A DNA stretch of 64,000 bases from Psilocybe cubensis. Lineage: Eukaryota. Both the position numbers and the translations under genes were made by a program. The notes beneath the pieces were generated by a model that did no database searches, was not told where the DNA came from, and saw only the letters and a program-made list of their open reading frames with translations. Location: positions 1,364,001-1,428,000 of the forward strand of contig CM039008.1 in NCBI GenBank assembly GCA_017499595.2, written 5' to 3'. Shown piece after piece: positions 5,197 through 64,000 of this stretch; the first letter of the stretch is position 1; every line of letters starts with the position of its first letter.

Positions 5197-6908
5197 AAAC
5201 CGAGTAGATTTATCTCTACTGCTTTTTTTCTTGTTCTTTTTTTCCTTCGTGGTTCCAATCTCCTCGATGTGAAAGGACGGAAAAAAAATTAGATATCGCG
5301 AATACGATCAGATGAAGCGGGATACTTTTTTCAAATGTATTAGTTCCTGGAACATATTTTGTTGTATGAATTGCTTGGACGAGATTGGGATGGGTGGATG
5401 GATGGATTTAAACGAGTTCGGGCGTTAGAGGTTGGATGTGGTTTGTCCGAGTTGGAAAGTTCTGATTGGTGTATGTGGTTTAAATCTACCGCATGTACCC
5501 ATGAGGACGAAGGAGGTGTGTTGCAGTTGAACGCTATACGAGCTTTTGTTAGGTAGCCAGATAGCGGGAGACAAGGAACGGTGCAGATCGTTCCTGCTCT
5601 CTTTTTTTTCTTACTACTTACCTTGTACGCATTATGACAGTCTTTTTGTTTTTTTATAGATTTTTTCTTTTTTATCTCAAAATTTTTTTTGTCTTCTGGT
5701 TTGGTGTGCGGTTTTTGGTTTTTGGTTTGGGATTGTTATGTGGTTCGGGATGTTGTGCCGTCTGGTCGTTCAGCTTGTTTGGGGGGATGGGCAAGGGATG
5801 GGTTGAGGTTGATTGTTGATGATGTTGAGAAAGGTGGGTGAGGGTGTAGGAGAATGCGTGAGGTTTATAGAATGAACTGTGTCTCGGTGTAGAGATGGGA
5901 TTTGCCTGCTGGTGTTGGCATTGAGATCTGAGAGGCTACGACTGTACGAGATTACGAGGAGACGCGACACGACGCGACGCGATGTGGGATACTGTATGGC
6001 ACGTGCTTTTGATAGCCAATAGGAACGTTCGAAGTTGAAATGAAATTGCTTCATAGAGGGCGAATGGCAACCTTGATCGAACCAAACTTGAACTGGAACT
6101 TTGACGTTGCTTTTGAATTTTGTCCTTGGACGTTTTGGTCTGATGCACTCTTGCACTCTTTGCTTTGCTTTTGGATTTTGAAGGATTGGTGACTGCTGGC
6201 GAAATGGATGGGTTTTTTCGTGCTGCTTCTTGGTCTTCAACTTTGGATCTGGTGTCTGGTTCTAACAAGTGCTTCAATTGCCATTTGATTCTTCGATTTG
6301 AGTGTGTCGAGATCGGGGATTCGGAAGGGCAGATTTGTATACTTTGGTTGAGCTTTACTGTGTTGAATCTTCGTTTGCTGCGCTCTGCTTTCTATGCGAC
6401 TGGACGTGGACGTTTAGGATGCCTGCAAAAATACTACCGTGCTACTGGATAACTGGACTATGTTTTCCTTGGGTGCTGCTGTCTTTTTTTGCATTGGACT
6501 TGGCATCGTTTAATGAACTAAACACGACGACTCTTGCGATGTTGTTTGTGCTGTTCTGTGTTTTTCGCTGCTCCCGCTCCAGGAATTCCAATATTTCAAG
6601 GTGCCCGTTCTCTGGACCTAGGTGTTTTCCCCACTCGATCTTATTCTCGATCTTCTGACACTGTCTCAGGTATCTTCGTCGTCTCTGACATAACATTCTG
6701 GACGCGACGCGTATACGTTTGTGTGGGGATGTTAGTTCCCCCTCGATCGATCGTATACAAGCTCGCCCGGGCGTGGTGTATATAATCCTACCCTCTCTTT
6801 ACTTCCTCTCTTTCCTTCCTTCTCTTCAGTCTCTCACCGAAGGAAAGACTCTACTGTATACCCTCTTGTTATTTTCTGCGATACCTCTTTACGAATATCA
6901 CGAACATC

Positions 6909-9858
6909 ATGAAGCTCTTCAAGCGCAAGTCTACCAAAGGCGATGTCGTCGCCGAGGTTATGGGCATCTCGCCCGGCGCCGTTGGTTCTGCCAACGACGC
7001 GACCAAGCCCAAGAAGAAGAAGGGCAAGGCCCGCCGTGTCTGTATGTATCTCATCTCATCCTCGCCAAGGCTCTGGAGCGTGTTCGAGCGTGTTCTGACG
7101 CGTTCATTTTTAGTCCTCGGTATCTTGAAGAAGACCGTTCCCTGCGCGTCGGGAAGAGCCCACACGGTTGAGAACGTCGGCGAGGACGAAAGCTTCTACG
7201 ACCAAAAGCACAAGAGCGAAGTTACTGCCACGGGCGAGTTCATCTTCGAGCCCATGGGGCTCCCCGCCCAATCGGTTGCGGTGCCCATCGCTGCGCCAGC
7301 CCCTGCCCACGTCGCCGGGCGCAGGAACCGTCAGGCTCAGATCATTCAGCCCAAGGTTCAGGCCCCAGCTGCTATGGGCGAGGTCAATGGATCCGTCGAC
7401 ATCGTCCAGGAGGCCAGGGAACGCACTGAGAGGGTCGTTCCAGAGGCGATGAACCCCGCCAACGCCAACGCTGGCGGGAACAGGAACCGCACTGCTCGCG
7501 TTATTCAGCCCAAGATTCAAGATGGGTCGGTCGACAAGTTCAGCATCATCGAGCGGGCCTATCTTCATCAGCTCAAAACGCAAGGAGATCGTCCTCCTCC
7601 CAGCGACGCGCAGAACAAGGCCAAGCGCCAGGCGCGTATCATGTACCCTGGGGCCATCAACCCTGACCACAAGCCTGGTGCAGTCAAGGCCGCCGACGTC
7701 GAGAAGGAGGTTAGCACTCGTCCCAAGATCCCCTTGCCTCCTATGCCTATCGACCCGACTTTCGACCCAAACGCAAGGAGCGAAGTGAGGATCGCGCACC
7801 CCTTCGTCTACCCCCCGCGCCCACCACCCAAGCCCCTCGTCGAGCACGATGCCAGCTCTCCTCCGAACATTCCTCTGCCACCTGTGCCCACCTACCCCTA
7901 CGACAGGAAGTTTAGGCGTCAGGCGCGCATCGCTCAACCCAAGGCTGTCGATGCTCCCGCCGAGGTCGCCGACGCCCCCGTCGTCAAGGTCGAGGAGCCA
8001 GTCAAGCCCGTCGTTGTTGAAAGCTCGACCACTCCCGAGGCTGTCGATGTCGTCGAGGTCGCCGAGGTCGCACCTGCCAACACCGTTCAGAAATCCAGAC
8101 GTCATGCACGCATCGTCCAACCGATTGTTTTCGCCCCCGACAATGAGCCAGCTGCTGTGGACGACCTCGACAACGGCAAGGACGCTGCTGTGGCCACCAA
8201 CGTCCTTGAGGTTGCCGAGGTCGACACTGCGAACGTTGCTCAGAGGAAGAGGCGTCACGCACGATTTGTGCTTCCCGTCGATTATATCCCAGCTTGTGAA
8301 GCTGCGACGGGTGTTGAGGTTGAAGATGTTGTCAAGCCTGCCGTGGTCGAAGAACCTGTCGGTGTTGAGGAGCCTGCCGTCGTGGTCGTCGAGGAGCCTG
8401 TCGTCGAGGAGCCTGTCGCCGTCGAGGAGCCTGTCGTCGAGGAACCTGTCGTCGAGGAACCTGTTGTCGTCGAGGAGTCAGCTGTCGTCGATGTTCAGTC
8501 CAAGGTCGTCGATCACGTCGAGGTCGACGAAGAACGCCGCAAGCGTGCTTATACCTCTTTCGATGCAGTGCTTGTTGGCCTTAGCCTTCTCCGCGATGAC
8601 TCCAGCGAGGGCGAAAGCTACAAGGAACGCGACTTTTTTTCAGACGGTACGTCTTTTATCTTTGTTTCACTGATGTCTACCTTTGGTTGACTTTTGTACC
8701 CATAGAATCTTCGCATCCTGGTGATGTAGAAGATGTCGTCTCTGAGGTTGCCGCTGCTGTTGAGAATGAGGTAGCTGTTCGTTGTTCTCTTGAGGTGCGA
8801 GTGGCTGTTACCTCCAAAGTTGTTGCATATGGAACAATTCTTTTCGATGAAAATAACAGTGAGTAATGTCTCTTTCTTTCATACTACTTTTGTTGTTGAC
8901 GTTTCAATAGATAACACTGTCTCCGAGGTCGCTTCGTTTGAAGATGACCTCATCGTCCTTGGATCTTTCTCCAAGGATGCCGATTTCAAAGTTTGCACCT
9001 TCGGGTCCATTCCTCTTCTGGAGGATGATACCAGTGAGTACCCCTGTTATCACATTCTGTCTCTGTCTCTCTCCTCTTTCTTTTCATGCCTCCGCAACTT
9101 CAGCTGCTGATGTCTTGTGGCTTCTAGTCGGCAATTTCATCAAGACACAATATCTTACTCGTCGTGTTGCCGTTGGGAAGACCTCGGAAGTTGTTGGTTC
9201 GTCTGTTGTTGATTCTTCTACAGTCAGCGAGGTTGTCGATAGATCCTCGAATGGCGACTTGTCTCCTCTTGTGGATTCTATTCCTTCGGAGTACTCTTCC
9301 TCTCCTACTACTCCGGTCGAGGTTCAACAAGCTGGGGACCTGCCAAAGGAGGAGGTGAAGGAAGAAGTCAAAGAAATCGTTGATGTCATTGAAGAGGTAC
9401 CTGTTCTCGGTTCCCCTATCAAACTTGTGACTTCTTCACCCAAGCTTGCTGTGGTTCCAACCTCGCTTCCTTATGCCAAGGGAGTTCCTACTCGTCGGGT
9501 CGATATTCGTGGCACTCGTCAACGGGTCCAATGCGAGGGAACATCGACCAGCACTGGGGAACAACCTGGCGTTCTCGTGCGAAGTATTCTGAACTTGGAA
9601 GAGGCGTACTCTACGACCAATAAGCCTCGCATTGCTTCAGCTTCGCCTGTTGTCGAGACGGATGCACCGCTTTCCACTACCAGGAAAGTTCCACCTTCTC
9701 GAATTCCAGTACTGGCATCACGACGAGAAGCTCTTGCTCGCCGTCGCTTTGGTACGCTATACGAGTCGCGATCTACACCTGCACCTGGTATTCGACCTTT
9801 GTTACTGCCCTTGCATAAGAGCAATCGCGATGCATACGACTCGGAGCATGAGCGATGA
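6909..9858 (+). CDS. Orphan disordered Pro/Glu/Val-rich protein (FGSIPLL family), copy A, 5 exons
   Basis: TATA at ~6778 followed by a CT-rich leader; long ORFs; GT-AG introns at ~7042, 8647, 8859 and 9034 keep the frame; intact near-identical copy at 28027; diverged paralog at 38601. Confidence 0.8.
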
Positions 9859-10195
9859 ACACTATATTCTGCTGGCATCTTCGCTGGTATTTGCATATTA
9901 TTCTGGCTCTCTCTCTCTCTCTCTCTTTTTCTCTCTCTCATCTCTGGATTTGTATCGACTCTGGTTTCTGTCTCTCGTCTTTTTTTCTCGTCTCTGTCTC
10001 TCTCTGTCTCGTCTCTCGTCTCTTGTATCTCTTTTTGTCTCTTTTTTCTATCTCGATTTTTGTCTCGTTTATTGTGTCTTGTTTCTTTTTCTCTCTCTCT
10101 TTTTTCTCTTTTTATTTTGTATTTTTTCTTGATCTGTATCTTTTTCTTTTTCTGTCTCCCTTAATATGCCGTTCATCTTGGTGACGGTCATCATA

Positions 10196-10825
10196 TATCT
10201 GGTGAGTTTTCGCACACTGCAACTATATCTTGCAACCTTTCTGACTTTTATTTTTTTAGGATTTTCGCCCTTCATATATGGGCATAAGTTCAACAATCTA
10301 TATCAAATTTTAGACATATATCCTCTTAATATCTGGCGAGTTTCACACTGCAACTGTATTACACACCTGTCCTAACTCTTTTTCTTAGGATTTTTGCCCT
10401 TCATATATGGGCGTAAATCCGAATAATCTGCATCAAGTTTTAGACAAATATACTCGTAATATCTGGTGAGTTACACGTTGTATCTGTGCCTCACCTGTCC
10501 TAACTCTTTTTCTCAGGATTTTCGCCCTTCAAATATGGGCGTAAATCCAAACAATTTGCATCACATTTTAGACAAATATACTCGTAATATCTGGTGAGTT
10601 CCACGTTGTAACTGTGCCTCACCTGTTTTGACTCTCTTCTTAGGATTTTCGCCCTTCATATATGGGCGTCTTTATCAAATTTTAGACAAATATACTCGTA
10701 ATGTCTGGTGAGTTTCACACCGCCATTGTTCTCTACACCTGTTCTGACTCTTACCAGGATCTTCGCCCTTCATATCTGGGCGTAATCCGAATAATCTGCA
10801 TCAAATTTATACTCTATTAGATATG
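10196..10825 (+). repeat. Tandem array of 5 intron+exon units (~115-135 bp), copy A
   Basis: Each unit is ATCTG|GTGAGT...CTAAC/CTGAC...YAG|GATTTTCGCCCTTCATATATGGGCG...; donors at 10202, 10336 (GC), 10466, 10594, 10708, then 10826. Confidence 0.85.
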
Positions 10826-11295
10826 GTAAGCTTTGCACATCCCTTTTCGTCTACTCTCTCTCATCTCAATTGTCGCTGTTGACAGGTCCTTTATACATCT
10901 TTATGGAAGTGTCGTGTGCATTTGTCATGACTATTTCTCTTAATCTTTCGTACGATTTATGCGCATTTAAATCGTTTACTGTATCTAACTTCAGTTCTAA
11001 GGTCTTCTATACATTTCGACGATGTCCATTTATCGTCGTTCTTCATGGCCGATGACTTCATTACATCCTCGAAGTCGTTCGCCTGCTCAGTGACTCGCGT
11101 TCGGATTTCACTGACAAAGTTCTCGCTCCTTGGCACCATTGGTTAACAACGCTCGCAGTTTCAGCAGGTGAGTCCTAGTTATCTTCAACATTACTCTCCT
11201 TTCTGATCATACTTTTTCAGATTTCTCAGCTGAGGCTTCTTAGGCATACTCTACCCTGGGCACAGGCCATACCGCCCAGCACTGGAAACAATATC

Positions 11296-11530
11296 CGGGT
11301 TAGGGAACACACAGCCGACGGGCATCCTTGTGTTCCTCCTTTCATCAGGTGAAGGAGTTGTCTGACGGGACAATTTCTGAGCCACATCGCAGCCGCATAT
11401 GGAGTCGGGAGCGCTGACGAGTGCTCTCGTTTTCATTGTGTGGCTGCGGTGTCCGGTTGCATGGGATAGGGGGCGCAGTGCTGACGAGTGCTGTTTCCTT
11501 CTACTCTTGCGCCGGGATGATTGCCCGGAT
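11296..11530 (+). ncRNA. Putative structured RNA element with four GACG-tetraloop hairpins, copy A
   Basis: GACG loops at 11317, 11364, 11416 and 11483, each closed by a stem; compensatory changes relative to 49085-49320. Confidence 0.65.
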
Positions 11531-11730
11531 ACCTCCCAAACCAGTTGCCCATTCCGGATGCGCCAACCTCCAGCCTCGCCTTGCCTTTATATCTGCCGCT
11601 GCAAATTACTCGTTGCCATCATCATACGCCATTGGACCGAACACCTGGACGCTACCGTCCTTCTCCGTCCTTCTCCGGAGCCCTAGACAATCGCTGGCTC
11701 AAACTTCTCTGCAATGTTCGAGATAGACCT

Positions 11731-12070
11731 CTATCAACTTTCTCGGCATTTACGACCTTCACGACCTTTTACGACCTCCACGGTTTTACAACCGTCATGA
11801 CCTTTACGACATTTTACGACCTTCACGGTTTTACGACCGTCACGACCTTTTACGACCTCCACGGTTACACAACCGTCACGACCTTTACGACCTTTTACGA
11901 GCCTCACGGTTTCACAACCGTTACGACCTTTCACGACCTTTTACGACTTTTACGACCTCCACGGTTACACAACCGTCACGACATTTTACGACCCTCACGG
12001 TTGCACAACCGTTACGACCTTTTACGACCTCCACGGTTTTACAACCGTCATGACCACACCGTTACGACCA
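11731..12070 (+). repeat. Hairpin minisatellite (ACGGTT-NNAC-AACCGT with ACGACCTTT spacers), ~7 hairpins, copy A
   Basis: Repeats are directly visible. Confidence 0.9.
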
Positions 12071-13132
12071 ATCAAGAGCCAGGCTATTAGTCTTCTCGCC
12101 AATCATAGACGGCCACCTTTGACATGCCATCACACATCACTATACACTACCTTTACGATGCGCATACTGTCTACCCGCTCTGGCTCGCTCGTTGGCTTTT
12201 CGCCTGGCTTCCACAATCTATTGCCTCGGGGCTACTTCTGCTTTTGTTCTTGCTGTCTTCGTTCATTTTTTGTTATTCTCTCTTTGTTCAACAATTTCTT
12301 GTTTTCGATGTTACTCGTATTTCTTTGTTGTTGCTTTTATCTTGTTCTCTTCGTTCTCCTCTTCATGCTTCATCGGACAATTTTTGCATTTACATGCTAC
12401 TTTGCCATTTTCGTGCTTCATTGCTACACACTACCATTTCTTTCAAATATTTCTTCCATCTTTATTTCTTATTATCAACTCAATTTATTTCATATATCTT
12501 TATATATTTTCTTTTAGTCTCTTATTCTTATTATCTTCTAATTTATTTCCTTCAATTTAAACCATCACATATCTCTGCTTTACATTCATCTTTTTATCAT
12601 CTACTCGCTTCTAAATCTTCTTTTGAATCTTCACATATAATTTTTATATTTTATACCTATGTACCAACATATACTCTCCATCTTCTAATATATTCTGCTT
12701 TGAAAATCTAATAAATGTTTGAACCTAAGTTTGCTGCTAGAGGACAAGAACTCATTAGACTTTAACCCCTTTTAAAGCCGTGAGAACTAGGAAGGCCCCT
12801 GATCATGCTTTTGTACGCCCTTTCTGTCATCAAGTCGCACTGTTGGTTGTGCTCTTCGTGTTCTTCCACAATATGGATCATGATCGTTTCTATCGCCCAT
12901 TTTTATCAACTTGCTTCCAGTTAGCTGCATTATCATCGATTTTTAGAGTTCTGTTTAGATGATTCGGATTCCCTACCTGACTGTCACATTTTTTGCTTTT
13001 CGATCTCGATCGTTTTCTGGATGAGTGTGATCCCCAATTATTTTTCCCAATGCATTCATTCTTCTTCTTCCTATTAGTTTCATCTTCAGCGGGTTTTTCA
13101 TGGCAGATCTTCTATTCTCAATCCTTTCCACC

Positions 13133-14314
13133 ATGGGCACATCTTCGCTCTCGAAACTGTTCGCTCGTCCTTCAAAACGCCTGGGTGTTCATTCCATGAA
13201 AGGTAAAGAAGAGTCCAATTTCAGCAGTGAAATCTTCCAACTGCTGATGCTCAACAGCATGAGGAAAGTTCTTCCAGTGCGAGGTCAGAGCAAGATCTCC
13301 ATTCCGGTGTGTACTTCATAATAGCGTTATCGTAAGATGGACTCATCGGACACCTCTTCCATCTTCCACAGCTGTTGAAAAGCCTTCTCCACCAATGTCA
13401 AAAGAGGAGGCCTTCGAGGCGTTGTTGGCGATGTCTGAATCTGACGAGGATTCGAAGCGCTCTTCAGTTTTTACCATGAAAAGGACGAGTTCTGGCGAGT
13501 CATCACCATCAGAATACTCAAGCTCCCCTTCAACACCTTCTTCGTTCTCGCTCAGCGTACTTTCTGGAGACTCTGAAAAGAAGGATGGTGAAAGTATTAG
13601 ATTCCCCAAAAGCGACACGGAGTCTGATTTGGCGGTGCCTTCTGAGGAAAAGCTTGAACCTACTACCCTTGCGACTGAGGTAGGCTCAAAAGAAGACGTG
13701 GCGGAGGACCCTTGCTCTGGCGGGCATACACAAGATGATGATTACCTCGATATGCGCCTGGTCAATAAGCTCTTCGAGGACATTGTCAACCCGCGTGCGC
13801 GTCGCGTAGGTATGGTCCCCGGACCACGCACTGGACTTGGGAACGCTATTTTGGCCGCATATAAGCAGGAGTTACTAGAGACTGTTATTGCGCTTGAGGA
13901 TTCGTTTTCCTCACCGGTCCCCGCGTCGGGACTTTCACCGTACCCATGGGATAAGGTGCCTGAGGTATCGGGTGGCGACATAGATGCCGGGGACAGCTCG
14001 CCTGACGCCAGTTTCGACAGCGCTGTGGTTAGTCTGGATATCTTCAAAGAAAAGGACGAAGTCCCTTCCCAACCAACCACGGCGGTGCTTGATGGCGAAG
14101 GAATAAAAAAATGGCTTCGAGATTTTCTCTTCCACCTAATTTCAGGAAGGAAGAACCGGATCCCAATCCTCTGTTGACTGTGGTTCATATTCTCCTTCGA
14201 AGACAGCAAGACAAAGTGAGGGGAATTTTGCGCATTTCTGTGGACAGGGATATACATCCTCCCGACACGAAAGTGTTCAGGACCATTTCAACTCGCCCAT
14301 TCGCTAAGTTTTGA
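13133..14314 (+). pseudogene. Second orphan Ser/Glu-rich gene, frameshifted copy (intact copy at 61662-60479)
   Basis: Relative to copy C it lacks one C at ~13238 and one A at ~14105 (A7 vs A8); both are homopolymer sites. Confidence 0.65.
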
Positions 14315-15350
14315 TTCTCGGTCTTGGGTTCTGCGTCCTCTTCTGGTTAAGATTATCGCTTAGGTTTTTCCTTGTTCTTCTTTGCTAGCGACATTCTCTA
14401 TCGATTCTGCATTCTATTCCATGGAGCTCAGACAGCCCTTTTGCTGCATTCACGTGGTTGTTTTGCATAAATTTCTGCATTCCGTCTCGCTCGTGCTATC
14501 TCTATCGACAAGGAGGTCTACGACTTTTTGGCCACCGCCACCACCAAGCATGGCCTTGGCTTCTGGATGCCCGGCTATGGTATCATTCACCAGATTATCC
14601 TCTCTTTGGCCGGTTGTGGTGTTTGACCGTCGAGACCCAAGGACTCCAGTATCTCCAATCGGAGTCTTCTTTCACCCATGGAACGACTCGACTGAAATGA
14701 CAAAAAGGCAAACCACCCCATGTACCCAGACACCACACGCGTCATGCGTATGCATCCACCCACAACTGTTCTCAGCGTCCTTTCGGACAAGTCCACAGGG
14801 CCGTTATGTTATCAATCTAACATCTACTGACGGGTGTGGTGTCGTGTATCATGAGGACTCGGATTTGTTCGCAAACCTGAGTCACGTAGCTCCAGTTTTT
14901 GCGTTTTAACCAGATCGGATCCTCAAAAAGGTTGTGCCTAAAGAACTGAACAGATCTTGATTCACGTTCGATACGCGTCCTTGATTTTTTCAATCTGTGT
15001 GCAAAAACTGAAGCTTCCTGCAACTTATTTATCTAATGATCAACTACATTCCTGTCTTCCTTATCATGTGGTGTGATGCATGATGACTTGAGTTGTCAGC
15101 TATCAGCGCGCGATGACAGGCGCCTTTTCATAGTTCCTGATACGAGGACAATAGACGCCCAAATACAGTCTGACCGTCGTCGACGCATTGATGAGTGGGA
15201 GGTTTCCATCTAGCCCTATGGACGTGAAGGTGAAGTGGTGCAAGTTCAAGCAAGAGAAAGATCTGTAAACTCTGATTTTGAGGTACACATAGCATGCCCG
15301 TAGCATTTAATTTCAGAGATCTGTAACTAACTAACTAACTACCCAATATA

Positions 15351-26370: not shown

Positions 26371-28026
26371 TGGTAGTTTTGTTTCGCCGATTTTCAACAT
26401 GTTGATCTGTAGTATTTTGAGAAATATAATGTATAGGCTAGGAGCGGTTGCACTTCGTCAGCGATATTTTTATTATTATTCAAATTCTTGTTTTGAGGGC
26501 ACGGTTACCCTGGAAGACGCAAGTTGCAAACCTGTGTCATGTAAAGACCATGGGAAAGTAGGAAGGCTGGTATCGCATGCGCTACGAAGGCTACTAAAGT
26601 GGAGTTCCACGGGCAGCAGTATAGGCCAGTCGCGAATGGGAGAACACCACTGAGTCCCGGGAGCAGGCGTTTCCTCGATGCCTTCAACAAGCCCTGGGCC
26701 ATTCAACGATTCACATACGAAGCTCTTCAGGTAAAACGGGATATTGGGTCAAGAGAGCGTCAATACCTATATTCCTGTCTATCCAAATGATTGCAGGTTT
26801 TCCAGTGCCTATGGGCGAGTTTGCATGAACCCTGGCGTGGATATCATTTTTCGGTAGAGGTTGAGCATAGTACGGAGTCGGATTAGGTGAAGTTCTGCTA
26901 ATGGTGGGAGATGTCTCCATTCTAGTAGTAATTGCTTGGTTTTTTGGGATGGGCAAGGGATGGGGTGGGTGTAGGAGGATGAGTGAGGTTTTATGATGAA
27001 CTGTGTTTCGGTGTAGAGGGGAGATTTGCCTGCTGTTGTAGTGAGACCTCGAGATCTGAGAGGCTATGACTGTACGACTACGAGGAGACGCGACACGACA
27101 TGACATGACGCGACGCGACGCGATTTTGGGACACGAATGGCACGTGCATTTGATAGCCAATAGGAGTGACATTCGAAGGTTGTAGAGAGTGAATGGTAAC
27201 CTTGAACTTGAACTCGAACTCTGATGTTGCTTTTGCATTTTGTTCTTGGACGTCTCGGTCTGATGCACTCTTGTACTCTTTGCTTTGCATTGTGAAGAAT
27301 TGGTGTCTGTCTGGCGAAACGGATGGGTTTTCGTGCTGCTTCTCGGTCTTCAACTTTGGACCTGGTGTCTGGTTCTAACAGGCGCTTCAATTGCGATTTG
27401 GTTCTTCGATTTGCCTGTGTCGAGGTCGGGGATTTGGAAAGGCAGGTCTGTATACTTTGGTCGGGGGTTGAGCTTTACTGTGTTGAATCTTCGTTTGTTG
27501 CTCTCTGCTTTCTATGCGACTGGACGTTTAGGATGCCTGCAAAAATACTATTGTGCTACTGGACAACTGGGCTACGTTTTTCCTTGGGTACTACTGCTGG
27601 CTTTTTTCTCATTGGACGCGGTAGCATTTCAATAAGCTAAACACGACGACTCTTGCGATGTTGTTTGTTCTGTTCTGTTTTTTTCCTGCTCCCGCTTCAT
27701 GAATTCCAAGATTTCAAGGTGCCCGTCCTCTGGACCTAGGTGTTTTCCCCACTCGATCTTATTCTCGATCTTCTGACACTGTCTCAGGTATCTTCGTCGT
27801 CTCTGACATAACATTCTGGACGCGACGCGTATACGTTTGTGTGGGGATGTTAGTTCCCCCTCGATCGATCGTATACAAGCTCGCCCGGGCGTGGTGTATA
27901 TAATCCTACCCTCTCTTTACTTCCTCTCTTTCCTTCCTTCTCTTCAGTCTCTCACCGAAGGAAAGACTCTACTGTATACCCTCTTGTTATTTTCTGCGAT
28001 ACCTCTTTACGAATATCACGAACATC

Positions 28027-31018: not shown

Positions 31019-31066
31019 ACACTATATTCTGCTGGCATCTTCGCTGGTATTTGCATATTATTCTGG

Positions 31067-31101
<35 letters not shown>

Positions 31102-38860: not shown

Positions 38861-39146
38861 TGTAGGGATTTGGATACGCGTGCGCGCGACGCGACTCACA
38901 ACAAACACGTCACATGACGCTTGCGGACACACTCACTTGGCATCGTCGACGCCATATGGCCACAGCATAGACGCGTAGTCAGTAGTTAGCACCTTACCGG
39001 AGACGTCGTTACACACCGAAGGACGTATCGAATCATATTTCCTATTTTTTTCCCATCTCTTTCCGTGCTAAACACATAAATATCTACAAAACTCTGTCCG
39101 TACTCAGGCTACTTTGTCCTCTCTCGAACTCGCCCCCTTCCCTACA
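38861..39146 (+). repeat. 5' LTR
   Basis: Identical by eye to 46661-46946. Confidence 0.97.
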
Positions 39147-39328
39147 TCTGGAGCCCACCGCGAGGGGACAAAACCAGTAAAACCGGTTTTGCCCGCCCCC
39201 TTGTCCGTTAAACCCCGTGTCACTGAGGAACTGTCAATATTGCCTCAAACAGCGGAAGTTCGACATCCCAACCGGTTCGAGGCTCCTTTCTCAAGAAGGG
39301 CTCGGGAATTCGATCTTCTTCTGGGAAA

Positions 39329-46285: not shown

Positions 46286-46660
46286 CGAGCGGGCGATGGT
46301 GCAAAAGAGGGGGGAGGAGGTGTGAAAGAGGGGGGAGGAGGGAAAGAGAAATTTGGAAGAGAAAAGATATTGAGTGAGATCGGAGACGAGAGACGACGAG
46401 CGAGGGCATATAGACAATGGAGAGAGCTAGTTAGAGAGTTAGAAGGAAGAATGAATGGCGAGGGGAGGAGGACTGACCGAATAGAGAGGAAAGGAGGTGA
46501 TAGAGGCCACTTGAGACTGGGTCTTGAGCAGGCCACATATCAGGTCGTGACTGGATGGATCCATATCACGAATAGCACTAGGGAGTGGGCCGCAGGATGT
46601 AGACTCGAAACCGAAACCGAAATTTCAGCCAGGAGCCTGAAATTTAAAGTGGGGGGGAGA

Positions 46661-46946
46661 TGTAGGGATTTGGATACGCGTGCGCGCGACGCGACTCACA
46701 ACAAACACGTCACATGACGCTTGCGGACACACTCACTTGGCATCGTCGACGCCATATGGCCACAGCATAGACGCGTAGTCAGTAGTTAGCACCTTACCGG
46801 AGACGTCGTTACACACCGAAGGACGTATCGAATCATATTTCCTATTTTTTTCCCATCTCTTTCCGTGCTAAACACATAAATATCTACAAAACTCTGTCCG
46901 TACTCAGGCTACTTTGTCCTCTCTCGAACTCGCCCCCTTCCCTACA
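46661..46946 (+). repeat. 3' LTR
   Basis: Identical by eye to the 5' LTR. Confidence 0.97.
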
Positions 46947-49084
46947 ACACCATCAAAATAAACCACCCTGCTCCAGAGGAAGACTGTGCCGATGACATCA
47001 GCGCCATAGTTTTCCGCGATGCATACGAAGATGGTTCGCTCGACTACGATCATTCTTCGCTCGCATCTATTCCGGACCACATCTCTCGAGATGTGGTCGA
47101 ATATATCCATACCCCCATCGTCGACCATAGCTCTCCTATTGTCGACCTCGTTGGCTCTGTCCTCGATTTCGTCGGTGACGTGGAGGTGACACAATTCTTT
47201 GGCCCCATCAATCGCCAAAACGAAGTCGTTGCCCCCACGATCGATCTGGTTGAAGAGCCCACTGTAGTCTTTCCCGCTGCTGCTCCTGTTGAAGCCGTCG
47301 AAGTCGGTCGGGCAGCAGAAGAAGATATTACTGGACATCCCAGCGCATCGCCCATCGAGTCCAAGTCGTATGAAGAAGACGACAGCGACCTGGGAGACAT
47401 CATCGATGGATACTACTCTACGTCGTTGGCTGATAAGAAGGGATGCCTATACGGTATGTCTGGACATCATTTGTTCCTTTTTTTATAAAGTCATATTTAC
47501 CCTCTGCTTCTCAGTGTCTCTTCCGTACAAAGTAGCCAATGTCATCTCCGAGCCGGAACCAGTCAAGGTTCAAATCGCCAAACCAGCTGCCTTTAAGCTT
47601 GCAGCTTTTGGCTCTATCCCGTTATTAGACCAGAACCTTAGTGAGTGGTTTCAGACTTTTAAGCACAATATCCCCCTAACCTTTTTTTACAGTCGACGAA
47701 TTCATCCAGACGCAAGGAGCACCTCGTCGCAAACAGCGCGCTGACGATGTCGGCGTTCGATGCAATGGATGCCACAGCGACATCGTCAAGGAGGTTATCG
47801 AAGAATACCTCAAGGTCCTATCCAAGCACAACCTCGAAAACCGCATCGACGAAATCGATATCGCTGGGGTGTTGTCGGAGGATTGCAAATGTTCAGTCAT
47901 AGATTCTTCGTCATCGGGATTGGTGTGTTCAGCTATCGGTTCGTCATCTTCAGAGTCTGGTTGTTCTGTCATGGGTGTTTCGCATTCAGACAACTCCAGC
48001 TCTCCCACCACCCCCAATCATATCCAAGCTGCTTGTATCTCTGCTGACGCTGAACCCGACAAGCACCACAAAGTCATTGCCGCCACCTCTGCTAATTCTA
48101 CCCCTGTTACGGCCTTTCACACCTCTCCTACCATCGCTACTCCCAAGTGTCAAACCCCAACATTGCTCATCCGTTACAGGTTAAACTCCGAATACCGTCG
48201 CTTTTATACTTCCTCTCGGCCATCAGGCATCCCTGTGAGGCAGAGGACCCAGTCTCAAGCACTCTCCCAATCATCTTCTCAATCCACACCTCCTCGCCCT
48301 CCCTTTGCACCTGCTCACTTTGTCATGCGATGGCTTAACGGCATGCCTCATGGCTCTATTTCTAGCCCAACCAACATCCGTGCCAATTCCCATTCTCCAA
48401 TTCCAGGATCGCCTCCCTCTTCGCTGCGTTCTATCGGAAAGATATAACGTCCCTACGTGTTTGTCGGTCTTCTTCTCTTTTTCTCTCGCTGGCTTCCCTA
48501 TCTTCTTCCATCTTCTCGTCTCTGGCTTCTCTCTCTCTCTCTCTCTCCTTCCTCTTCACCCGCTCGTAAATATAGTTGGACATAGCCAAGCTTCAAGTTT
48601 TATTTGAAGAAGGAAACACCTGGCATTCTCCATTCTGGATACTTTTCTGACTACTCCGCCTCGCCTTACCGTGGACTCGATTCTGTAGAATCGTCCTTCG
48701 GAGCTCGCGAATGTTGTCCTTTATCATCTTAGGTCTTCAGGCTTGTGTTTTCCGACTCCGTCTTGTTTCTATTGCCTCTCTATCTTGGTGTTTGCCTAGT
48801 TCCGTCTTTTTCTACTGCGATCTGATGCTTGGCTTTTGGTCTGTTCTATTCTCCTGGAGCTTCAACCTGGCTTGCATCACATTTGGCGGCCTTAATCATA
48901 TTTCTTACCATCTGTTCAGCGGGATAGACCCATACCAAACGACTCTCACCACTGTGCGGCTTACGTATGTTATGTTGAGGGGCAATCATCAGGTATGTTC
49001 ACTTCCGCTACGGATTCATGACTTTTTTTTCTAATACCCATTGGCTTAGATTCATCATTGTATTGCGCATATATGTGTCCTCGA

Positions 49085-49320
49085 CTGGGTTCTAGAGCGC
49101 TACGAGGTCGACGGACTTCCTGCTGCTCTCCTTCGTCAGGTGAAGGATGGCCCGACGGGGCTATCTTTTCACCGCATCGTTGGCATGCTGTGTCGGTCGG
49201 AGTGCTGACGAGCACCTCTGCCTTCATTGCATAGTCTTGATGCCCGATTTCATTGAAGAAGGAAGCATCGCTGACGAGTGATGTTTCTTTCTTTCTATGT
49301 ATCGGAGACGAAGATCTGAA
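49085..49320 (+). ncRNA. GACG-hairpin structured element, diverged copy D
   Basis: GACG loops at 49110, 49154, 49207 and 49273; stems are re-paired with different sequence; preceded by a putative intron 48993-49049. Confidence 0.62.
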
Positions 49321-49856
49321 CCGTCAACCTCACACTGGATCTCTTCCGCTTGCTCAGGCTAGCTCAGGCTAGCTCTCATCTGTCCGCCAAACTATTAGCA
49401 CACCCTTACTGGCTCGATGACGTTATCCATTTATTTCACTCGCAAGTTGGATCGCCCTTGACGTTTTAAATTTTCATCATGACTCAGGCTATTGCCAACA
49501 TTTTCTCTATGTCTTTGCTTGCTCCATGCTTTTCCTCGAACATACATCTTTTCTGCGTTACTTTACTATCATGCTTTTGTGCTTCTTTTGATTTTTGTAG
49601 TTTCAAGTGTTCCGTTTCTATCATTTTATCTCATTATCTGCGTCCTTTTTCTTTAGTTTTCTTTAGTATTCAAAATTAAACCTGGATCTTGTCCCAAGCT
49701 ACGCGTGATACTTAATCCTTGAATCGTTGCAAAGTAACTTCATACCATTCATAATGATTTTAATATTCGCCATGATTTCCGTGTCATGAACAAACAAAGT
49801 TTACGGTATATTAACTAGAACAGGAGAAATGAAATCAAAAAGAAATGGAAAAAGAG

Positions 49857-49962
49857 TGACCGAGGTAGGGGTCGAACCTACAATCTCCTGATTGCGAGAT
49901 CACGTGATCAGAAGTGCACGTACTGATCGTAGTCAGACGCGATGCCATTTCGCCACACGGCC
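49857..49962 (-). tRNA. tRNA-Arg(ACG) with a ~34-nt intron
   Basis: GGCCGTGTGGCGAAATGGCATCGCG TCTGA CT-ACG-A [intron] ATCAGG...GGTTCGACCCC...CTCGGTCA; A and B boxes; downstream T-run. Confidence 0.92.
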
Positions 49963-50338
49963 ATATCTATCATTATAAAATTACGTTACTACACATGAAA
50001 ATAACTGTTTTCAGTTTTCCTGCAAGCCATACTTTTCTTATTTCTTCCAAGTTCAACACATCGGTGCAGGTATTATCATGTCACCGTCTGCCAACCATCA
50101 GAGGACCCGTAAATCCTGATGCTCAGAAACTTACTTCATTTTCCTATATTTCACCTTTCAAACATCCACAGCAATAGTGCACGGACTGACGCCGAGAGTC
50201 GCAAGAGCGGTGCAATACAAACTCAAGAGGGGAAAAGTGTATATTCTATAAGCCACAAACTATCGATCAGTTACAATATTGGTAATAATACAGATGTCGA
50301 AGAGCACGAGTTCAGAGGCATAAAAGCAAAGTGTTCGG

Positions 50339-58202: not shown

Positions 58203-60478
58203 GACTGGAAAATCTGAGAGGAGGTCACCAGTAGGGAGGATTTCCACTGGGCCGGAATCAAGAAGGGGTCTTCTCAAGCGAAACCACCGCGAGGTCTAAG
58301 TATAAGTAAAAGATGCTTCACGATAATGGCACAGACCGCAATCTAACCGATTGGCAATACCTGAGAAATGAGAGATCGGTATCAAGACTCGAGAACCAGG
58401 GCTCGAGGTAAATACATGCTTTGAACGGCTGTCAACACGGAGTGTTACGCTTTTGGCAGTGTGGATAGTTGGGCGTATACATCCATCTGCATCAGTCGTG
58501 GGAACCGAAGTTTCTTCGTTCAAGTTGAAAGCTGCCTGCGCTGTTGTGTGACGACTATCATTCTATGACAGCTCGGGCAGCATGGACTGGCCGATGGAAC
58601 TGATTGAGGGCGTCCTATGTTCATTTGTCATGATATTTTTGGTATCTAATATAGTCCATGCCCACACAGCCAACTATACTTGCTTTGACCGACAAATATC
58701 TTTGAATGATGAACACGACATAGAATGAGGCAGAAATCTGTACGGAGAGAACGAATCTTCTGGGCTCACAACTGAGCGGTCCATAAAACCCCGCGTGATT
58801 ATCGATCTGTGAGAGAGCAGCTTGATTTTCAGAAGACTTGCGGAAAAGTGTCATTAACACTCGGATCCTTGTCCACAGAATGTTGTTCAAACTCAAGTGC
58901 GGATATCTTTAGTTACCGTTGTTCCGGTGGTTGTTTACACTTCTTTGTGTGCTTCCACACTCTCAAAGCAGCCTCGTAATCGCCTGAAAAATATGCTTCT
59001 TTGTCGCATTATCGGTGGCACAATTCTTAGAATATCTCAGCGACAACCCGACGCCAGCTTTAACTACCCATGATTCAAGTGTAATTGCGCGAGGTACACT
59101 ATCACTTTTCTGCCTCGTGGCATCATCAGTGCAACTTTATCACTTCGACTGGCTTCGACAATGATTCTACCCCTATCGTAGGCAAGATATGTTCCAATAG
59201 CTTACAATGAACAGTTCCCGGAGTAACTACAGCAACATCACTAAGTCCGATATCTTCAGTCACAAAACAATATCATATGCATAAGTATCCTTGCCAGTAC
59301 TCACGCAGTAATTCGGAAATCACTCTGAAATTCCAGTAGTACTGTCAACTAAGCCCATCTATACCTATGCGTAAACAACGGTGTTTATTTTTCGAGCAGA
59401 AAAAGACACGTCAATGGTTGGCATGTCCTGATACCCGACAAGGATCTACAGAATTTAAACGTCTAGACGTTGAAGGTGGAGATAGGTCGTATTACTATCG
59501 AATTCACGCGATAGTTCGTGGACTATCTGACAACAATCAGCGGTCGACCATTAGTATTCCCCAAAGATTATGCGGATGGGGCAAGATAACATCCAGCACT
59601 TGACAAAGTATGAGAGAGCTGGGGTTGATATGTTTGTAGTTTTACCATATGTCCAGGACAGGGACCTCGCAAAAACGATAGATTATGTAGCTGGGAACTT
59701 CATATCGCAGACAGTCGGAAAATTTGCGAGATTAACACAGCAGCTTAGTGAATGCGCAGTATATTATTAACAATAAGCGATATTTTCCGAACCCACCTTT
59801 GGCCGCAAATGACCCCTTATAAGATGAGCGGCGTTCTCGTAGGCGAGGGTTTTAACCGTATGTTCTCAAGGTAACAGTTGATACTTACCGAACATATTTG
59901 CGAATAATGCTTAGGTGAATGTTCCGATAAAGTATTGGTAAGAGCCTTCAGAGAAGTACAAGTACCATGATAAAAGTGTTCTAATCTGAATATACTATAA
60001 ATAGAACAAGAAACCCTCATCGAGAATCCGAGTCGAGATAAGATAATAACATGAAAACGGAACTTGGGAAAAACACCAGACAGAATCTTATCAAAATGAA
60101 TTCATTTATACAAGCCAAAAAGGGGACATATACAAAGTTACAGCTCAAAGAAAACATACAAAGATGAAGAACAAATCTAATAGTAAAAAGGAGATTCAGA
60201 GTAGCCTAGTCGGACGTCGTCCAGGAGGTTGAACTGTCCAAATGCGATAAAAATGGATCCGGTCATGAATACATAATCCAGGAAGAAAATATAAAACGAG
60301 ATAGAAGGATGGACGAGAAATTCCCCTGGGAGGCGAGACGCAGACAACTTGGTAGGTGTGTCTAAGCTCCATGGAATAGAATGCAGGGTCGATATAGAAT
60401 GTCGCTAGCAAGAAAGAACGAGAGAAAACCTAACCGATAACCTTAACCAGAAGAGGATGGAGAACCCAAGACCGAGAA

Positions 60479-61662
60479 TCAAAACTTAGCGAATGGGCGA
60501 ATTGAAATGGTCCTGAACACTCTCGTGTCGGGAGGATGTATATCCCCGTCCACAGAAATGCGCACAATTCCCCTCGCCTTGTCTTGCTCTCTTCGAAGGA
60601 GAATATGAGCCACAGTCAACAGAGGATTGGGATCCGGTTCTTCCTTCCTGAAATTAGGCGGAAGAGAAAATCTCGAAGCCATTTTTTTTATGCCTTCGCC
60701 ATCAAGCACCGCCGTGGTTGGTTGAGAAGGGACTTCGTCCTTTTCTTTGAAGATATCCAGGCTAACCACAGCGCTGTCAAAACTGGCGTCAGGCGAGCTG
60801 TCCCCGGCGTCTATGTCGCCACCCGATACCTCGGGCGACTTATCCCATGGGTACGGTGAAAGTCCCGACGCGGGTACCGGGGAAGAAAACGAATCCTCAA
60901 GCGCAATAACAGTCTCTAATAACTCCTGCTTATATGCGGCCAAAATAGCGTTTCCAAGTCCAGTGCGTGGTCCGGGGACCATACCTACGCGACGCGCACG
61001 CGGGTTGACAATGTCCTCGAAGAGCTTATTGACCAGGCGCATATCGAGGTAATCATCATCTTGTGTATGCCCGCCAGAGCAAGGGTCCTCCGCTACGTCT
61101 TCTTTTGAGCCTACCTCAGTCGCAAGGGTAGTAGGTTCAAGCTTTTCCTCAGAAGGCACCGCCAAATCAGACTCCGTGTCACTTTGGGGGAATCTAATAT
61201 TTTCACCATCCTTCTTCTCAGAGTCTCCAGAAAGTTCGCTGAGCGAGAACGAAGAAGGTGTTGAAGGGGAGCTTGAGTATTCTGATGGTGATGACTCGCC
61301 AGAACTTGTCCTTTTCGTGGTAAAAACTGAAGAGCGCTTTGAATCCTCGTCAGATTCTGACATCGCCAACAACGCCTCGAAGGCCTCCTCTTTTGACATC
61401 GGTGGAGAAGGTTTCTCAGCAACTGTGGAAGATGGAAGAGGTGTCCAATGAGTCCATCTTACGATAACGCTATTATGAAGTACACACCGGAATGGAGATC
61501 TTGCTCTGACCTCGCACTGGAAGAACTTTCCTCATGCTGTTGAGCATCGGCAGTTGGGAAGATTTCACTGCTGAAATTCGACTCTTCGTTACCCTTCATG
61601 GGATGAACACCCAGGCGTTTTGAAGGACGAGCGAACAGTTTCGAGAGCGAAGACGTGCCCAT
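60479..61662 (-). CDS. Second orphan Ser/Glu-rich protein, intact copy (2 exons)
   Basis: MGTSSLSKLFARPSKR...DLHS|VAEKPSPPMSKEEAF...RPFAKF*; one GT-AG intron joins the two ORFs in frame. Confidence 0.72.
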
Positions 61663-62732
61663 GGTGGAAAGGATTGAGAATGGAAGATCTGCCATGAAAA
61701 ACCCGCTGAAGATGAAACTAATAGGAAGAAGAAGAATGAATGCATTGGGGAAAAAAATTGGGGATTGGTACTCATCCAGAAAACGATCGAGATCGAAAAG
61801 CAAAAATGTGACAGTCAGGTAGAAAATCCGATTCATCTAAACAGAAGTCTGAAATCTGATGAAATGCAATTCCCTGGAAGCAAGCCATGAAGAGTACAAC
61901 CAACAGAGGGACTGGTAACTGAGTAGGTCAGATAGCCAATGCTAAGACAGGTGACAGCGATGTACAAAAGTATGATCAGGGCCCTTCCATTTCAAGGTAA
62001 AGAAGCTGCTAGTAGTTCTCACGGTTTTGAAAGGGGTTAAAGTCTAATGAGTTCTTGTCCTCTAGCAGCAAACTTAGGTTCGAACAATTATTAGATTTTC
62101 AAAGCAATATATATTAGAAGATGGAGAGTATATGTTGGTATATAGGTATAAGATATAAAAATTATATGTGAAGATTCAAAAGAAGATTTAGAGGCGAATG
62201 GATGATAAAAAGATGAATGCAAAGCAGAGATATGTGATGGTTTAAATTAAAGGAAATAAATTAGAAGATAATAAGATTAAGAGATTGAAGAAAATATATG
62301 AAGATAGATGAAATAAATTGAGTTGATAATAAGTTATAAAGATGGAAGAAATATTTGAAAGAAATGGTAGTGTGCAGCAATGAAGCACGAAAATGGCAAA
62401 GTAGCATGTAAATGCAAAAATTGTCCGATGAAGCATAAAAAGGAGAACGAAGAGAACAAGATAAAAGCAACAACAAAGAAATACGAGTAACATCGAAAAC
62501 AAGAAATTGTTGAACAAAGAGCGAATAGCAAAAAAACAAACGAAGACAGCAAGAACAAAAGCAGAAGTAGCCCAGAGGCAATAGATCGTGGAAGCCAGGC
62601 GAAAAGCCAACTAGCGAGCCAGAGCGGGTAGACTGTATGCGCATCGTAAAGGTAGTGTATAGTGATGTGTGATGGCATGTCAAAGGTGGCCGTCTATGAT
62701 TGGCGAGAAGACTAATAGCCTGGCTCTTGATT

Positions 62733-63235
62733 GGTCGTAACGGTGCGGTCATGACGGTTGTGCAACCGTGAGGGTCGTAAAAGGTCGTCATGGTTGTGTA
62801 ACCGTGGAGGTCGTAAAAGTCGTAAAAGTCGTAAAAGTCGTAAAAGGTCGTAAAAGGTCGTAACGGTTAAGAAACCATGAGGCTCGTAAAATGTCGTGAA
62901 GGTCGTGACGGTGTTAAACCGTGGGGGTCGTAAAAGGTCGTAAAGGTCGTGACGGTTGTGTAACCGTGGAGGTTGTAAAAGGTCGTGAAGGTTGTAAAAC
63001 CTTGAAGGTCGTAAAAGGTTGTGACGGTCGTAAAACCGTGAAGGTCGTAAAAGGTCGTAAAAGATCATGACGGTTGTAAAACCGTGGAGGTCGTAAAGGT
63101 CGTGACGGTCATAAAACCGTGAAGGTCGTAAAAGGTCGTGACGGTTGTAAAACCGCGGAGGTCGTAAAAGGTCGTGACGGTCGTAAAAGGTCGTAAAAGG
63201 TCGTAAAAGATCGTAAAAGGTCGTGAAGGTTGTAA
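62733..63235 (-). repeat. Hairpin minisatellite, copy C (~10 hairpins)
   Basis: Repeats are directly visible. Confidence 0.9.
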
Positions 63236-63477
63236 ATGCCGAGAAAGTTGATAGAGGTCTATCTCGAACATTGCAGAGAAGTTTGAGCCAGCGAATGTCT
63301 AGGGCTCCGGAGACGGACGGTAGCGTCCAGGTGTTCGGTCCAATGGCGTATGATGATGGCAGCGAGTAATTTGCAGCGGCAGATATAAAGGCAAGGCGAG
63401 GCTGGAGGTTGGCGCATCCGGAATCAAGGCGAGGCTGGAGGTTGGCGCATCCGGAATGGGCAACTGGTCTTGAGGTA

Positions 63478-63712
63478 TCCGGGCAATCATCCCGGCGCAA
63501 GAGTAGAAGGAAACAGCACTCGTCAGCACTGCGCCCCCTATCCCATGCGACCGGACACCGCAGCCACACCATGAAACCGAGAGCACTCGTCAGCGCTCCC
63601 AACTCCATATGCAGCTGCGATGTGGCTCAGAAATTGTCCCGTCAGACAACTCCTTCACCTGATGAAAGGAGGAACACAAGGAAGCCCGTCGGCTGTGTGT
63701 TCCCTAACCCGG
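63478..63712 (-). ncRNA. GACG-hairpin structured element, copy C
   Basis: Reverse complement of 11296-11530 with all four loops intact. Confidence 0.6.
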
Positions 63713-64000
63713 ATATTGTTGCCAGTGCTGGGCGGTATGGCCTGTGCCCAAGGTAGAGTATGCCTAAGAAGCCTCAGCTGAGAAATCTGAAGAAGTATGA
63801 TAAGAAAGGAGAGTAATTTTGAAGATAACTAGAACTCACCTGCTGAAAACTGCGAAACGTTGTTGACCAATGGTGCCAAGGAGCGAGAATTTTGCCAGTG
63901 AATTCCGAACGCGAGTCACTGAGCGGGCGAACGACTTCGAGGATGTCAAGAAGTCATCGGCCATGGAGAACGACGATAAATGGACATCGTCGAAATGTAT

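Follow-up and report, generated by a model that had tools for sequence, protein, structure and literature searches.

A Four-Hairpin GACG RNA Domain in Segmentally Duplicated Copies of an Orphan Gene Family of Psilocybe cubensis

The 64,000-nt stretch of Psilocybe cubensis DNA analyzed here (the window) contains four copies of a module with a common order: first an orphan gene, next a CT tract, then short introns (as predicted) and finally an element of 234 nt. The element folds on the sense strand into four hairpins, each with a GACG cap. Comparison of the copies indicates that this fold is kept by compensatory change, on the strand of the gene, and offers a clear case of a non-coding element that has changed much less than the orphan protein beside it.

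Copies of the Module and Their Origin

Three of the copies are young (A, B and the inverted C, at 96-98% identity; 0.957-0.979 pairwise in the common non-satellite parts) and one, D, is old. In self-BLAST and a repeat search, A 5835-12935 corresponds to B 26961-34154, and A 11009-14434 to C 64000-60359 in inverted orientation, C being cut off by the window end. Inspection of the boundaries puts the left edge of A and B at about 5775 and 26930, in agreement with position 5777 given in the initial annotation. Module A thus covers 5775-12935 on the plus strand in the part common to B, with homology to C extending to 14434. Module B (26930-34154, plus strand) has an intact coding sequence for 909 amino acids, four tandem units and a satellite at 32754-33285. 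Of module C, only the downstream half is visible (60359-64000, minus strand), including a gene 2' (~60479-61700) and a satellite at 62735-63240. Whichever segment is compared between A and B (promoter, exon, intron or intergenic DNA), identity is 92-99%. The right-hand ends differ, as B stops at 34154 (equivalent to A 12935), while C reaches the equivalent of A 14434.

The initial annotation had described the order of gene, CT tract, intron and element in A, B and D, with C showing the downstream half; BLAST, the gene models and a covariance model confirm this order, and with it a module with a structured RNA that has spread locally in copies of different ages. The same annotation had considered a non-autonomous mobile element or a selfish, drive-like unit. 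Nothing supports the latter, and the former is not supported by the copies themselves: no common termini, TIRs, LTRs, target site duplications (TSDs) or terminal motifs were found at the module copies by repeat search, self-BLAST and boundary inspection. Nor do the copies have the paired ends of a transposable element of any kind (TIR, LTR, Helitron or a non-autonomous derivative): A and B have a common left edge without terminal motifs, and the right-hand ends of B and C differ. The retained introns and promoter also indicate that the copies were not made through RNA. A and B display the collinear homology and intact paralogues of a segmentally duplicated gene family. Judging from these retained introns and the lack of common ends, the copies arose through segmental duplication, not transposition.

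An LTR retrotransposon of the Ty3/gypsy type, which is not part of the module, interrupts D at 38861-46946 (plus strand). It has identical LTRs of 286 nt, a 4-bp ACAC duplication and reverse transcriptase, RNase H and integrase domains, and is young, intact and apparently active. The initial annotation had missed it: the statement that no reverse transcriptase or TSD was seen in 5777-64000 is wrong for that range. The retrotransposon (38861-46946) is free of GACG hairpins whose stem reaches 5 bp.

A Fast-Evolving Protein Family

The coding sequence of gene A (6909-9858, plus strand) specifies 891 amino acids in five exons: 6909-7041, 7114-8646, 8706-8858, 8911-9033, which encodes the FGSIPLL motif, and 9128-9858. 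It corresponds to the public protein P0006 (898 amino acids), which, to judge from the two sequences, appears to use another acceptor for intron 4. Gene B (28027-31018, plus strand; 909 amino acids) is intact and differs from A by 17 synonymous and 25 non-synonymous changes in 891 codons. Gene D is split within its second exon by the retrotransposon, which places its first exon at 38602-38741; 38602-38860 holds exon 1, its intron and the first part of exon 2, and 46947-48447 the remaining coding sequence, both on the plus strand. This second part is 100% identical to the public protein P0008. The proteins of D and A have only short islands in common (tblastn E-values 1e-5 and 9e-4), with 29% identity (alignment A4), and are barely alignable, as had been noted initially.

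A short divergent paralogue, gene 2, with SKLF.RPS and EYSSSPSTP motifs, is located downstream in A (13100-14177, plus strand; exon structure approximate) and, as gene 2', in C. This paralogue had been overlooked, and a covariance-model search of the window found no GACG element behind gene 2. One more paralogue, also missed earlier, is located on another P. cubensis contig, and JR316_0010898 is an example of a family gene elsewhere in the genome.

A motif scan identified six arginine-rich repeats (R-R-x-A-R-I-x-Q-P) each in A and B. None was detected in D, where they are nearly absent, and the paralogue P0001 has one clear repeat, to which a reading of the alignment adds possibly one or two degenerate ones. 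The predicted structure of the 898-residue protein, for which the input alignment held three sequences, has a mean pLDDT of 36, and none of the 898 residues reaches 70. The family is one of Psilocybe-restricted, fast-evolving orphan proteins that, as modeled, are largely disordered.

A Non-Coding Unit Downstream of the Gene

Directly 3' of each large gene copy, a unit of 1.2-2.9 kb is non-coding, rich in pyrimidines and, as predicted, interrupted by introns. In A, a CT-rich tract (9907-10170, plus strand), preceded by TATA-like strings, lies behind the stop codon; the tract of D is at 48460-48560 (plus strand). A TATA box and a CT box also precede the ATG in A and B, in a similar arrangement. 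Possibly, the CT tract of A serves the downstream unit as its promoter. A first mini-exon and tandem units of 114-129 nt follow (10167-10886, plus strand), each unit consisting of an exon of 64-77 nt and an intron of 50-53 nt. The introns predicted in this region of A are 10202-10259, 10336-10388 (with a GC donor), 10466-10516, 10594-10643, 10708-10757 and 10826-10886, and the splice signals are intact in all seven tandem units compared. A further predicted intron lies just upstream of the element in A (11168-11220, GTGAGT..CAG) and in D (48993-49049, GTATGT..TAG), both on the plus strand. Its position is conserved between the two lineages, and the initial coordinates of both introns proved exact.

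Behind the element of A, a satellite with 9-, 36- and 45-nt periods (11749-12060, plus strand) contains TTTTACGACC and ACGGTT..AACCGT mini-hairpins; its length differs among A, B and C. The unit closes with a pyrimidine-rich tail that ends at an AATAAA (12710) in A (12061-12715, plus strand) and at an ATTAAA (49675) in D (49321-49680, plus strand). In the tail of A, all three frames are open and codon-position bias is absent. The whole would be a 3'UTR of unusual length or, more likely, a spliced lncRNA in tandem with the gene, begun at the CT tract. A 3'UTR with seven introns, as predicted behind the stop codon here, would be out of the ordinary.

An RNA Domain with Four GACG Loops

The covariance-model search of the window returned four matches and no others: A at 11297-11530, B at 32331-32564 and D at 49089-49320 on the plus strand, and C at 63477-63710 on the minus strand. 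The sequence GCTGACGAG occurs seven times in the window, against 0.55 expected, and all seven occurrences are inside the elements. The window has 14 GACG-capped hairpins with a stem of at least 5 bp, and the four elements account for 12 of them. Over the four copies, the loop is GACG in 15 of 16 hairpins. The exception is the fourth hairpin of B, mutated to GCCG, which means that one loop or more can be spared or that copy B is in decay. The D element may be under selection no longer, because the coding sequence of this copy is broken by the retrotransposon. Hairpins 3 and 4 have 26 to 31 model pairs, and the longest unbroken runs below loops reach 18 bp.

The sense strand of A folds with -157.8 kcal/mol (z = -6.5 vs. 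shuffles) and that of D with -126.1 kcal/mol (z = -7.4); on the opposite strand, z is -0.36 (A) and -3.6 (D). RNAalifold predicted 89 pairs, of which 12 have both partners changed when the A lineage is compared with D. Pairing is preserved in 94.8% of the 347 pair cells, compared to 44-52% when the partners are slid. None of 500 shuffles reached the 12 compensatory pairs, although this statistic overstates the support, as the covariation comes from two independent lineages only (A/B/C as one, plus D). Between A and D, the tetraloop letters are identical at 16 of 16 positions, whereas the paired positions agree at 96 of 165 (58%). Coding is excluded by indels of 1-2 nt between the two elements.

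With cmscan (4227 families, E-values up to 10), no Rfam match was obtained for 9800-13000, and 48400-50100 gave chance-level matches and one tRNA only. The retroviral encapsidation families in Rfam did not match the element at E-values up to 10.

Proposed Function and Alternative Explanations

We propose that local segmental duplication expanded the family and took the downstream non-coding unit along with each large copy, and that selection would have preserved the 234-nt sense-strand domain, with the GACG loops as its working parts. These loops could pair loop-to-loop via their self-complementary CG, like the gammaretroviral pair, or dock a loop-specific protein. If transcribed, the RNA would form a four-valent platform, joining paralogue transcripts or recruiting factors, and would thereby act on their assembly, localization or stability. 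Whether this explanation, built by analogy, holds as a whole is an even call. It is distinctly unlikely that such a fungal RNA, with a fourfold GACG kissing-loop domain of the type with which retroviruses dimerize and package genomes, lets transcripts of the rapidly duplicating orphan family pair or enter retrotransposon particles. Such an RNA-RNA assembly module would form a class of its own, and its consequences for the spread of the family might be selfish. A literature search found no cellular, non-viral GACG kissing hairpin; the titles and abstracts among the matches listed concern retroviruses or DNA-repeat hairpins, and none is fungal. Nothing relevant was found on long non-coding RNAs of P. 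cubensis. Should the unit be transcribed and the loops work as proposed, the GACG kissing hairpin would have a role in a cell, outside viruses, and a new structured-RNA family could be curated; the regulation of young gene families and mRNA-mRNA pairing in fungi would become testable in a culturable mushroom.

The initial annotation had favored co-evolution of protein and RNA. The family protein would then use the arginine-rich repeats to bind its own transcript at the GACG hairpins, for autoregulation or co-assembly. Arginine-rich peptides are known to bind hairpins (phage N/boxB, lentiviral Tat/TAR), A and B have six repeats each, the lack of a predicted folded domain would be typical of peptide-type RNA binders, and gene and element are adjacent in the old and young lineages alike. 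This adjacency is, however, the default result of segmental duplication and does not need a functional link. As D retains the full fold and four loops with no repeats in the motif scan, P0001 has a single clear repeat and gene 2 lacks the element, such a pair is unlikely. The domain could also derive from, or mimic, the leader of an LTR retroelement, the transcript being dimerized and packaged into Gag particles and the module being a hitchhiker or non-autonomous. Elsewhere, pairs of GACG hairpins are described for dimer-linkage and packaging regions of retroviruses and for co-packaged non-autonomous RNAs, and an apparently active Ty3/gypsy element is present at the same locus. Nevertheless, a packaging signal is very unlikely here: no copy is flanked by an LTR, PBS, PPT or gag, introns and promoter are retained, the LTR element of the window is itself devoid of GACG hairpins with the minimal stem, and no match was found in Rfam or among viral contigs.

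It is highly improbable that the element works as DNA, its palindromes and TGACG cores being transcription-factor sites in a promoter or enhancer of the neighboring genes. bZIP sites indeed have TGACG as their core, CGG-N8-CCG inverted repeats in the satellite close by resemble zinc-cluster factor sites, and in A and C the element has tandem family genes on either side. Yet protein-bound DNA palindromes keep their bases and not their complementarity, whereas here the stem sequences vary from hairpin to hairpin, and from A to D, with the pairing kept. Moreover, the many G-U pairs are C-A mismatches on the other strand, so that in A only the sense strand far outfolds its shuffles. Precursors of microRNA-like RNAs or siRNAs, processed from a spliced non-coding host transcript, would agree with the long stems and with hairpins inside a predicted intron-containing non-coding unit. 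The pattern expected of them is reversed, though, as loops and closing pairs are invariant and the stems drift (100% vs. 58% identical), and no complementary target of at least 15 nt was found in the window, which makes this origin extremely improbable. Finally, the divergence of 2-4% would fit the range expected between the nuclei of a dikaryon, as if A, B and C were haplotype or assembly duplicates rather than three loci. This is exceedingly unlikely for copies on one contig with different unique flanks, of which one is inverted and whose right-hand ends and repeat copy numbers differ; D is unaffected by it.

Comparison with Known Systems

In MLV, the GACG loops of partner RNAs pair CG to CG, and dimer stability and packaging benefit from these hairpins (PMC3265304, PMC5874298, PMC516450). 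Gammaretroviruses of the MLV type have the pair as SL-C/SL-D in the packaging and dimer-linkage region, and it is also reported in alpharetroviruses, maedi-visna virus and RD-114. As in the gammaretroviral pair, the fungal element has adjacent stem-loops with an invariant GACG tetraloop and variable stems, several loops per RNA, and a non-coding position within a Pol II transcript that is spliced, here a predicted one. The gammaretroviral signal is recognized by at least two neighboring GACG stem-loops, and each copy of the element has four, where retroviruses have two, downstream of a cellular fungal gene. Unlike the viral signal, the element has no retroviral palindromic stem-loops, conserved UCUG motifs or Rfam match, and no retroelement leader setting (LTR-flanked, from PBS to gag), as no LTR or terminal repeat flanks A, B or D. 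Kissing is proposed by analogy.

The oskar and bicoid mRNAs of Drosophila have kissing-loop dimerization elements in their 3'UTRs. As in these, loops in the 3' region of a cellular mRNA would pair in trans and co-assemble transcripts, but loop sequences, organism and loop number differ.

Hammerhead ribozymes combine a CUGANGA core, GAAA and a cleavage site at a three-way junction. The CUGANGA core is present in the element, but the corresponding CUGACGAG is the loop with the closing pairs of plain hairpins, and no Rfam hammerhead match was obtained at E-values up to 10. A telomerase RNA was also rejected: the structured strand has no telomere template, and CCCTAACCC is found on the minus strand of A, B and C only, and is absent from D. 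The telomerase RNA of another basidiomycete, Ustilago maydis, is processed from the 3'UTR of the Emi1 mRNA (PMC9564094). The place of the GACG element downstream of a coding sequence, with predicted introns, would fit such an intron-containing mRNA-type precursor; unlike the U. maydis RNA, the element is multi-copy. A study on Agaricomycetes describes polycistronic and read-through transcripts, so there are earlier examples of mushroom genes that share one long transcript with the neighbor behind them; those cases join protein-coding genes, whereas the downstream unit here is non-coding (PMC4503453).

The GACG Element: Fold and Conservation

The initial annotation had proposed, from sequence reading alone, a recurrent module consisting of an orphan gene and an RNA element. 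This module is confirmed, and its RNA part is now defined more sharply: a four-hairpin domain of 234 nt, located at 11297-11530 in module A, 32331-32564 in B, 63477-63710 (-) in C, and 49089-49320 in D. A, B, and the inverted C, which is cut by the window end, are young copies; D is an old, diverged one. A covariance model was built from all four elements, and its only matches in the window are these same four. In every copy, the predicted fold has four hairpins with GACG as the cap.

The sense strand folds with -157.8 kcal/mol in A (z = -6.5) and -126.1 kcal/mol in D (z = -7.4), vs. z values of only -0.36 (A) and -3.6 (D) for the antisense strand, a gap explained by the many G-U pairs. In fold and covariation statistics that draw on only two independent lineages, the consensus fold comprises 89 pairs, of which 12 have both partners changed when the A lineage is compared with D, a number of compensatory pairs reached in 0 of 500 shuffles; 94.8% of the pair cells are paired, vs. 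44-52% with the partners slid. Between A and D, the loop letters are all identical (16/16), vs. 96 of 165 paired positions. The element contains one- and two-base indels; hence, it is not coding. Among the 16 loops, a single change is found: tetraloop 4 of copy B (~32517-32520) reads GCCG.

Between hairpins 1 and 2 sits a 12-mer, TCAGGTGAAGGA, invariant in all four copies (11345-11356 in A, 32379-32390 in B, 49136-49147 in D, and 63651-63662 in C). It resembles a weak 5' splice site (CAG/GTGAAG) and, together with the preceding CCTT, could form an alternative small hairpin.

Origin of the Copies

In a self-comparison of the window, A (5835-12935) pairs with B (26961-34154), and 11009-14434 of A pairs with the inverted C (64000-60359); a boundary view places the left limit of the A/B homology nearer 5775/26930. 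The pairwise identity of the three young copies is 0.957-0.979 in shared non-satellite DNA, with B and C the closest pair by a slight margin. Segment-wise identity between A and B amounts to 92% upstream, 97-99% in the exons, and 92-100% in the introns. Introns and promoter were thus copied along at high identity, which indicates duplication at the DNA level. No terminal repeats were found at the copies, and the right-hand ends are not common to them. A, B, and C arose by segmental duplication, not transposition, and the linkage between gene and element results from this duplication.

The Orphan Gene Family

The coding sequence of gene A, upstream of the element of module A, extends over 6909-9858 in five exons and encodes 891 amino acids. 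Its product matches the public protein P0006 (898 aa), which apparently uses another intron 4 acceptor. Gene B is intact (909 aa) and differs from gene A by 17 synonymous and 25 non-synonymous codons in 891. The 18-residue difference in length is mostly due to a coding 15/18-nt minisatellite (EEPVV/EEPVA), which is longer at 29465-29666 in B than at 8358-8487 in A.

No Pfam domain was found in the proteins of this family, and AlphaFold2, run on an alignment of three sequences, gave no confident fold for the gene A protein (mean pLDDT of 36, none of 898 residues at 70 or above). A motif scan revealed six arginine-rich R-R-x-A-R-I-x-Q-P repeats, and the protein also carries the variable EEPV minisatellite; FGSIPLL and EYSSSPTTP are among its conserved islands. 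When 1.84 billion representative proteins were searched in full with HMMER, only two true relatives emerged: gene A itself and JR316_0010898, a paralogue with 40-44% identity, encoded on a contig other than that of the D protein. A third match, a bacterial repeat protein, was taken as spurious. Judged by such comparisons, the gene A family is an orphan family.

A short divergent paralogue, gene 2, follows module A at 13100-14177 (+), and its twin follows C at ~60479-61700 (-). It has only the N-terminal SKLF.RPS and EYSSSPSTP motifs in common with the family, and the covariance-model search of the window detected no GACG element downstream of it. The module had been read as a co-evolving protein-RNA system, perhaps selfish or drive-like. 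This reading is supported in part only: gene and element do form a module, but co-evolution of the protein with the RNA is not supported, as D, which lacks the arginine-rich repeats, still has the fold, and gene 2 lacks the element.

Gene D is interrupted by a Ty3/gypsy LTR retrotransposon (38861-46946), inserted in exon 2. Upstream of the insertion, 38602-38860 covers exon 1 and the first part of exon 2, and the gene continues from 46947. The retrotransposon has two LTRs of 286 nt, 100% identical, an ACAC duplication on either side, and an uninterrupted gag-pol frame of 2352 aa with protease, RT, RNase H, and integrase domains; the insertion is young. The initial annotation had overlooked both gene 2 and this element, with its RT domain and ACAC duplication. 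The last exon of D is 100% identical to the hypothetical protein JR316_0011568 of Psilocybe cubensis, whose public model starts within the 3' LTR; hence, that gene model is chimeric.

The window is eukaryotic and features short GT..AG introns, promoters with TATA and CT boxes, and one intron-containing tRNA. The latter (49857-49962 (-), intron of ~38 nt, 47.5 bits with Rfam) was missed by ARAGORN in its bacterial setting and is the sole Rfam match at the gathering and E-value thresholds.

The Downstream Non-Coding Unit

Beyond the stop codon, TATA-like strings are followed by a 260-nt CT tract and a predicted first mini-exon. Next comes a tandem array of four to five units (114-129 nt), each predicted to consist of a 64-77-nt exon and a 50-53-nt intron; GTGAGT, a CTRAY branch site, and YAG are kept in the introns of all seven units compared. 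Two more predicted introns precede the element. On its 3' side lie a 9/36/45-nt satellite, in A, B, and C only, and a pyrimidine-rich tail terminating at AATAAA (A) or ATTAAA (D). Among the units aligned, a 128-nt exon-intron unit is present four times in A (10260-10757) vs. three times in B (31419-31788). The satellite measures ~310 nt in A (11749-12060), ~530 nt in B (32754-33285), and ~500 nt in C (62735-63240); as a structured RNA, it was rejected (sense-strand z of -0.57).

The sense strand of this unit is 64% pyrimidine in every copy, and the ORFs in the unit are compositional. None of them matches a protein in the protein database. A small hydrophobic protein from the T-rich tail (ORF 12124-12708) was rejected: all three frames are open, and the substitutions (13/9/11 over the three codon positions) show no codon-position bias. 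In the promoter of gene A, a TATA box is followed by a CT box; for this reason, a separate start is preferred, and the downstream unit would have its own transcription start behind the CT tract. Among the listed sequencing runs with part of 6900-11750 (ten runs, four studies), none is an RNA dataset.

Comparison with Known RNAs and Putative Function

No Rfam family was identified for the element at E-values up to 10. Hammerhead, 5S-like, and snoRNA identities were ruled out, as no Rfam match supports them. Within the window, no complementarity to the element of 15 nt or more occurs elsewhere, and a scan of viral contigs for the hairpin-4 motif gave no match. In metagenomes, a pattern scan yielded at least 120 loci, of which 22 have at least one downstream TGACGAG or four GACG; all 22 are chance-like, in unrelated sequence, and none has paired TGACGAG hairpins. 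A literature search for the 8-letter loop motif gave nothing relevant by title or abstract among the matches listed.

Among ten papers retrieved for GACG tetraloops, six deal with retroviral RNA dimerization or packaging. Passages of PMC3265304, PMC5874298, and PMC516450 describe a pair of GACG-loop stem-loops in the leader of all gammaretroviruses, and similar loops in alpharetroviruses, maedi-visna virus, and RD-114; upon dimerization, the CG of each loop is stated to pair with that of the partner RNA, the hairpins adding to dimer stability and packaging. The fungal domain is likewise defined by a constant loop on variable stems. However, it has none of the retroelement context and, hence, is not classed as a member of the retroviral motif, which may serve as the best guide to its mechanism, no more. 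By this analogy, the element most likely functions as a multivalent platform for loop-mediated contacts. Such a platform would act via RNA-RNA kissing or via a loop-specific protein, and would sit within a long 3'UTR or a tandem lncRNA.

For a functional RNA produced from the 3' region of an mRNA, the Ustilago telomerase RNA is a basidiomycete precedent (PMC9564094). Unlike this RNA, the GACG element has no telomere template, and a telomerase RNA was ruled out for lack of one. On the sense strand, the 5' edge of the domain carries GGGTTAGGG, one and a half telomere-type repeats (11297-11305 in A, 32331-32339 in B, and 63702-63710 in C; absent from D), probably by chance.
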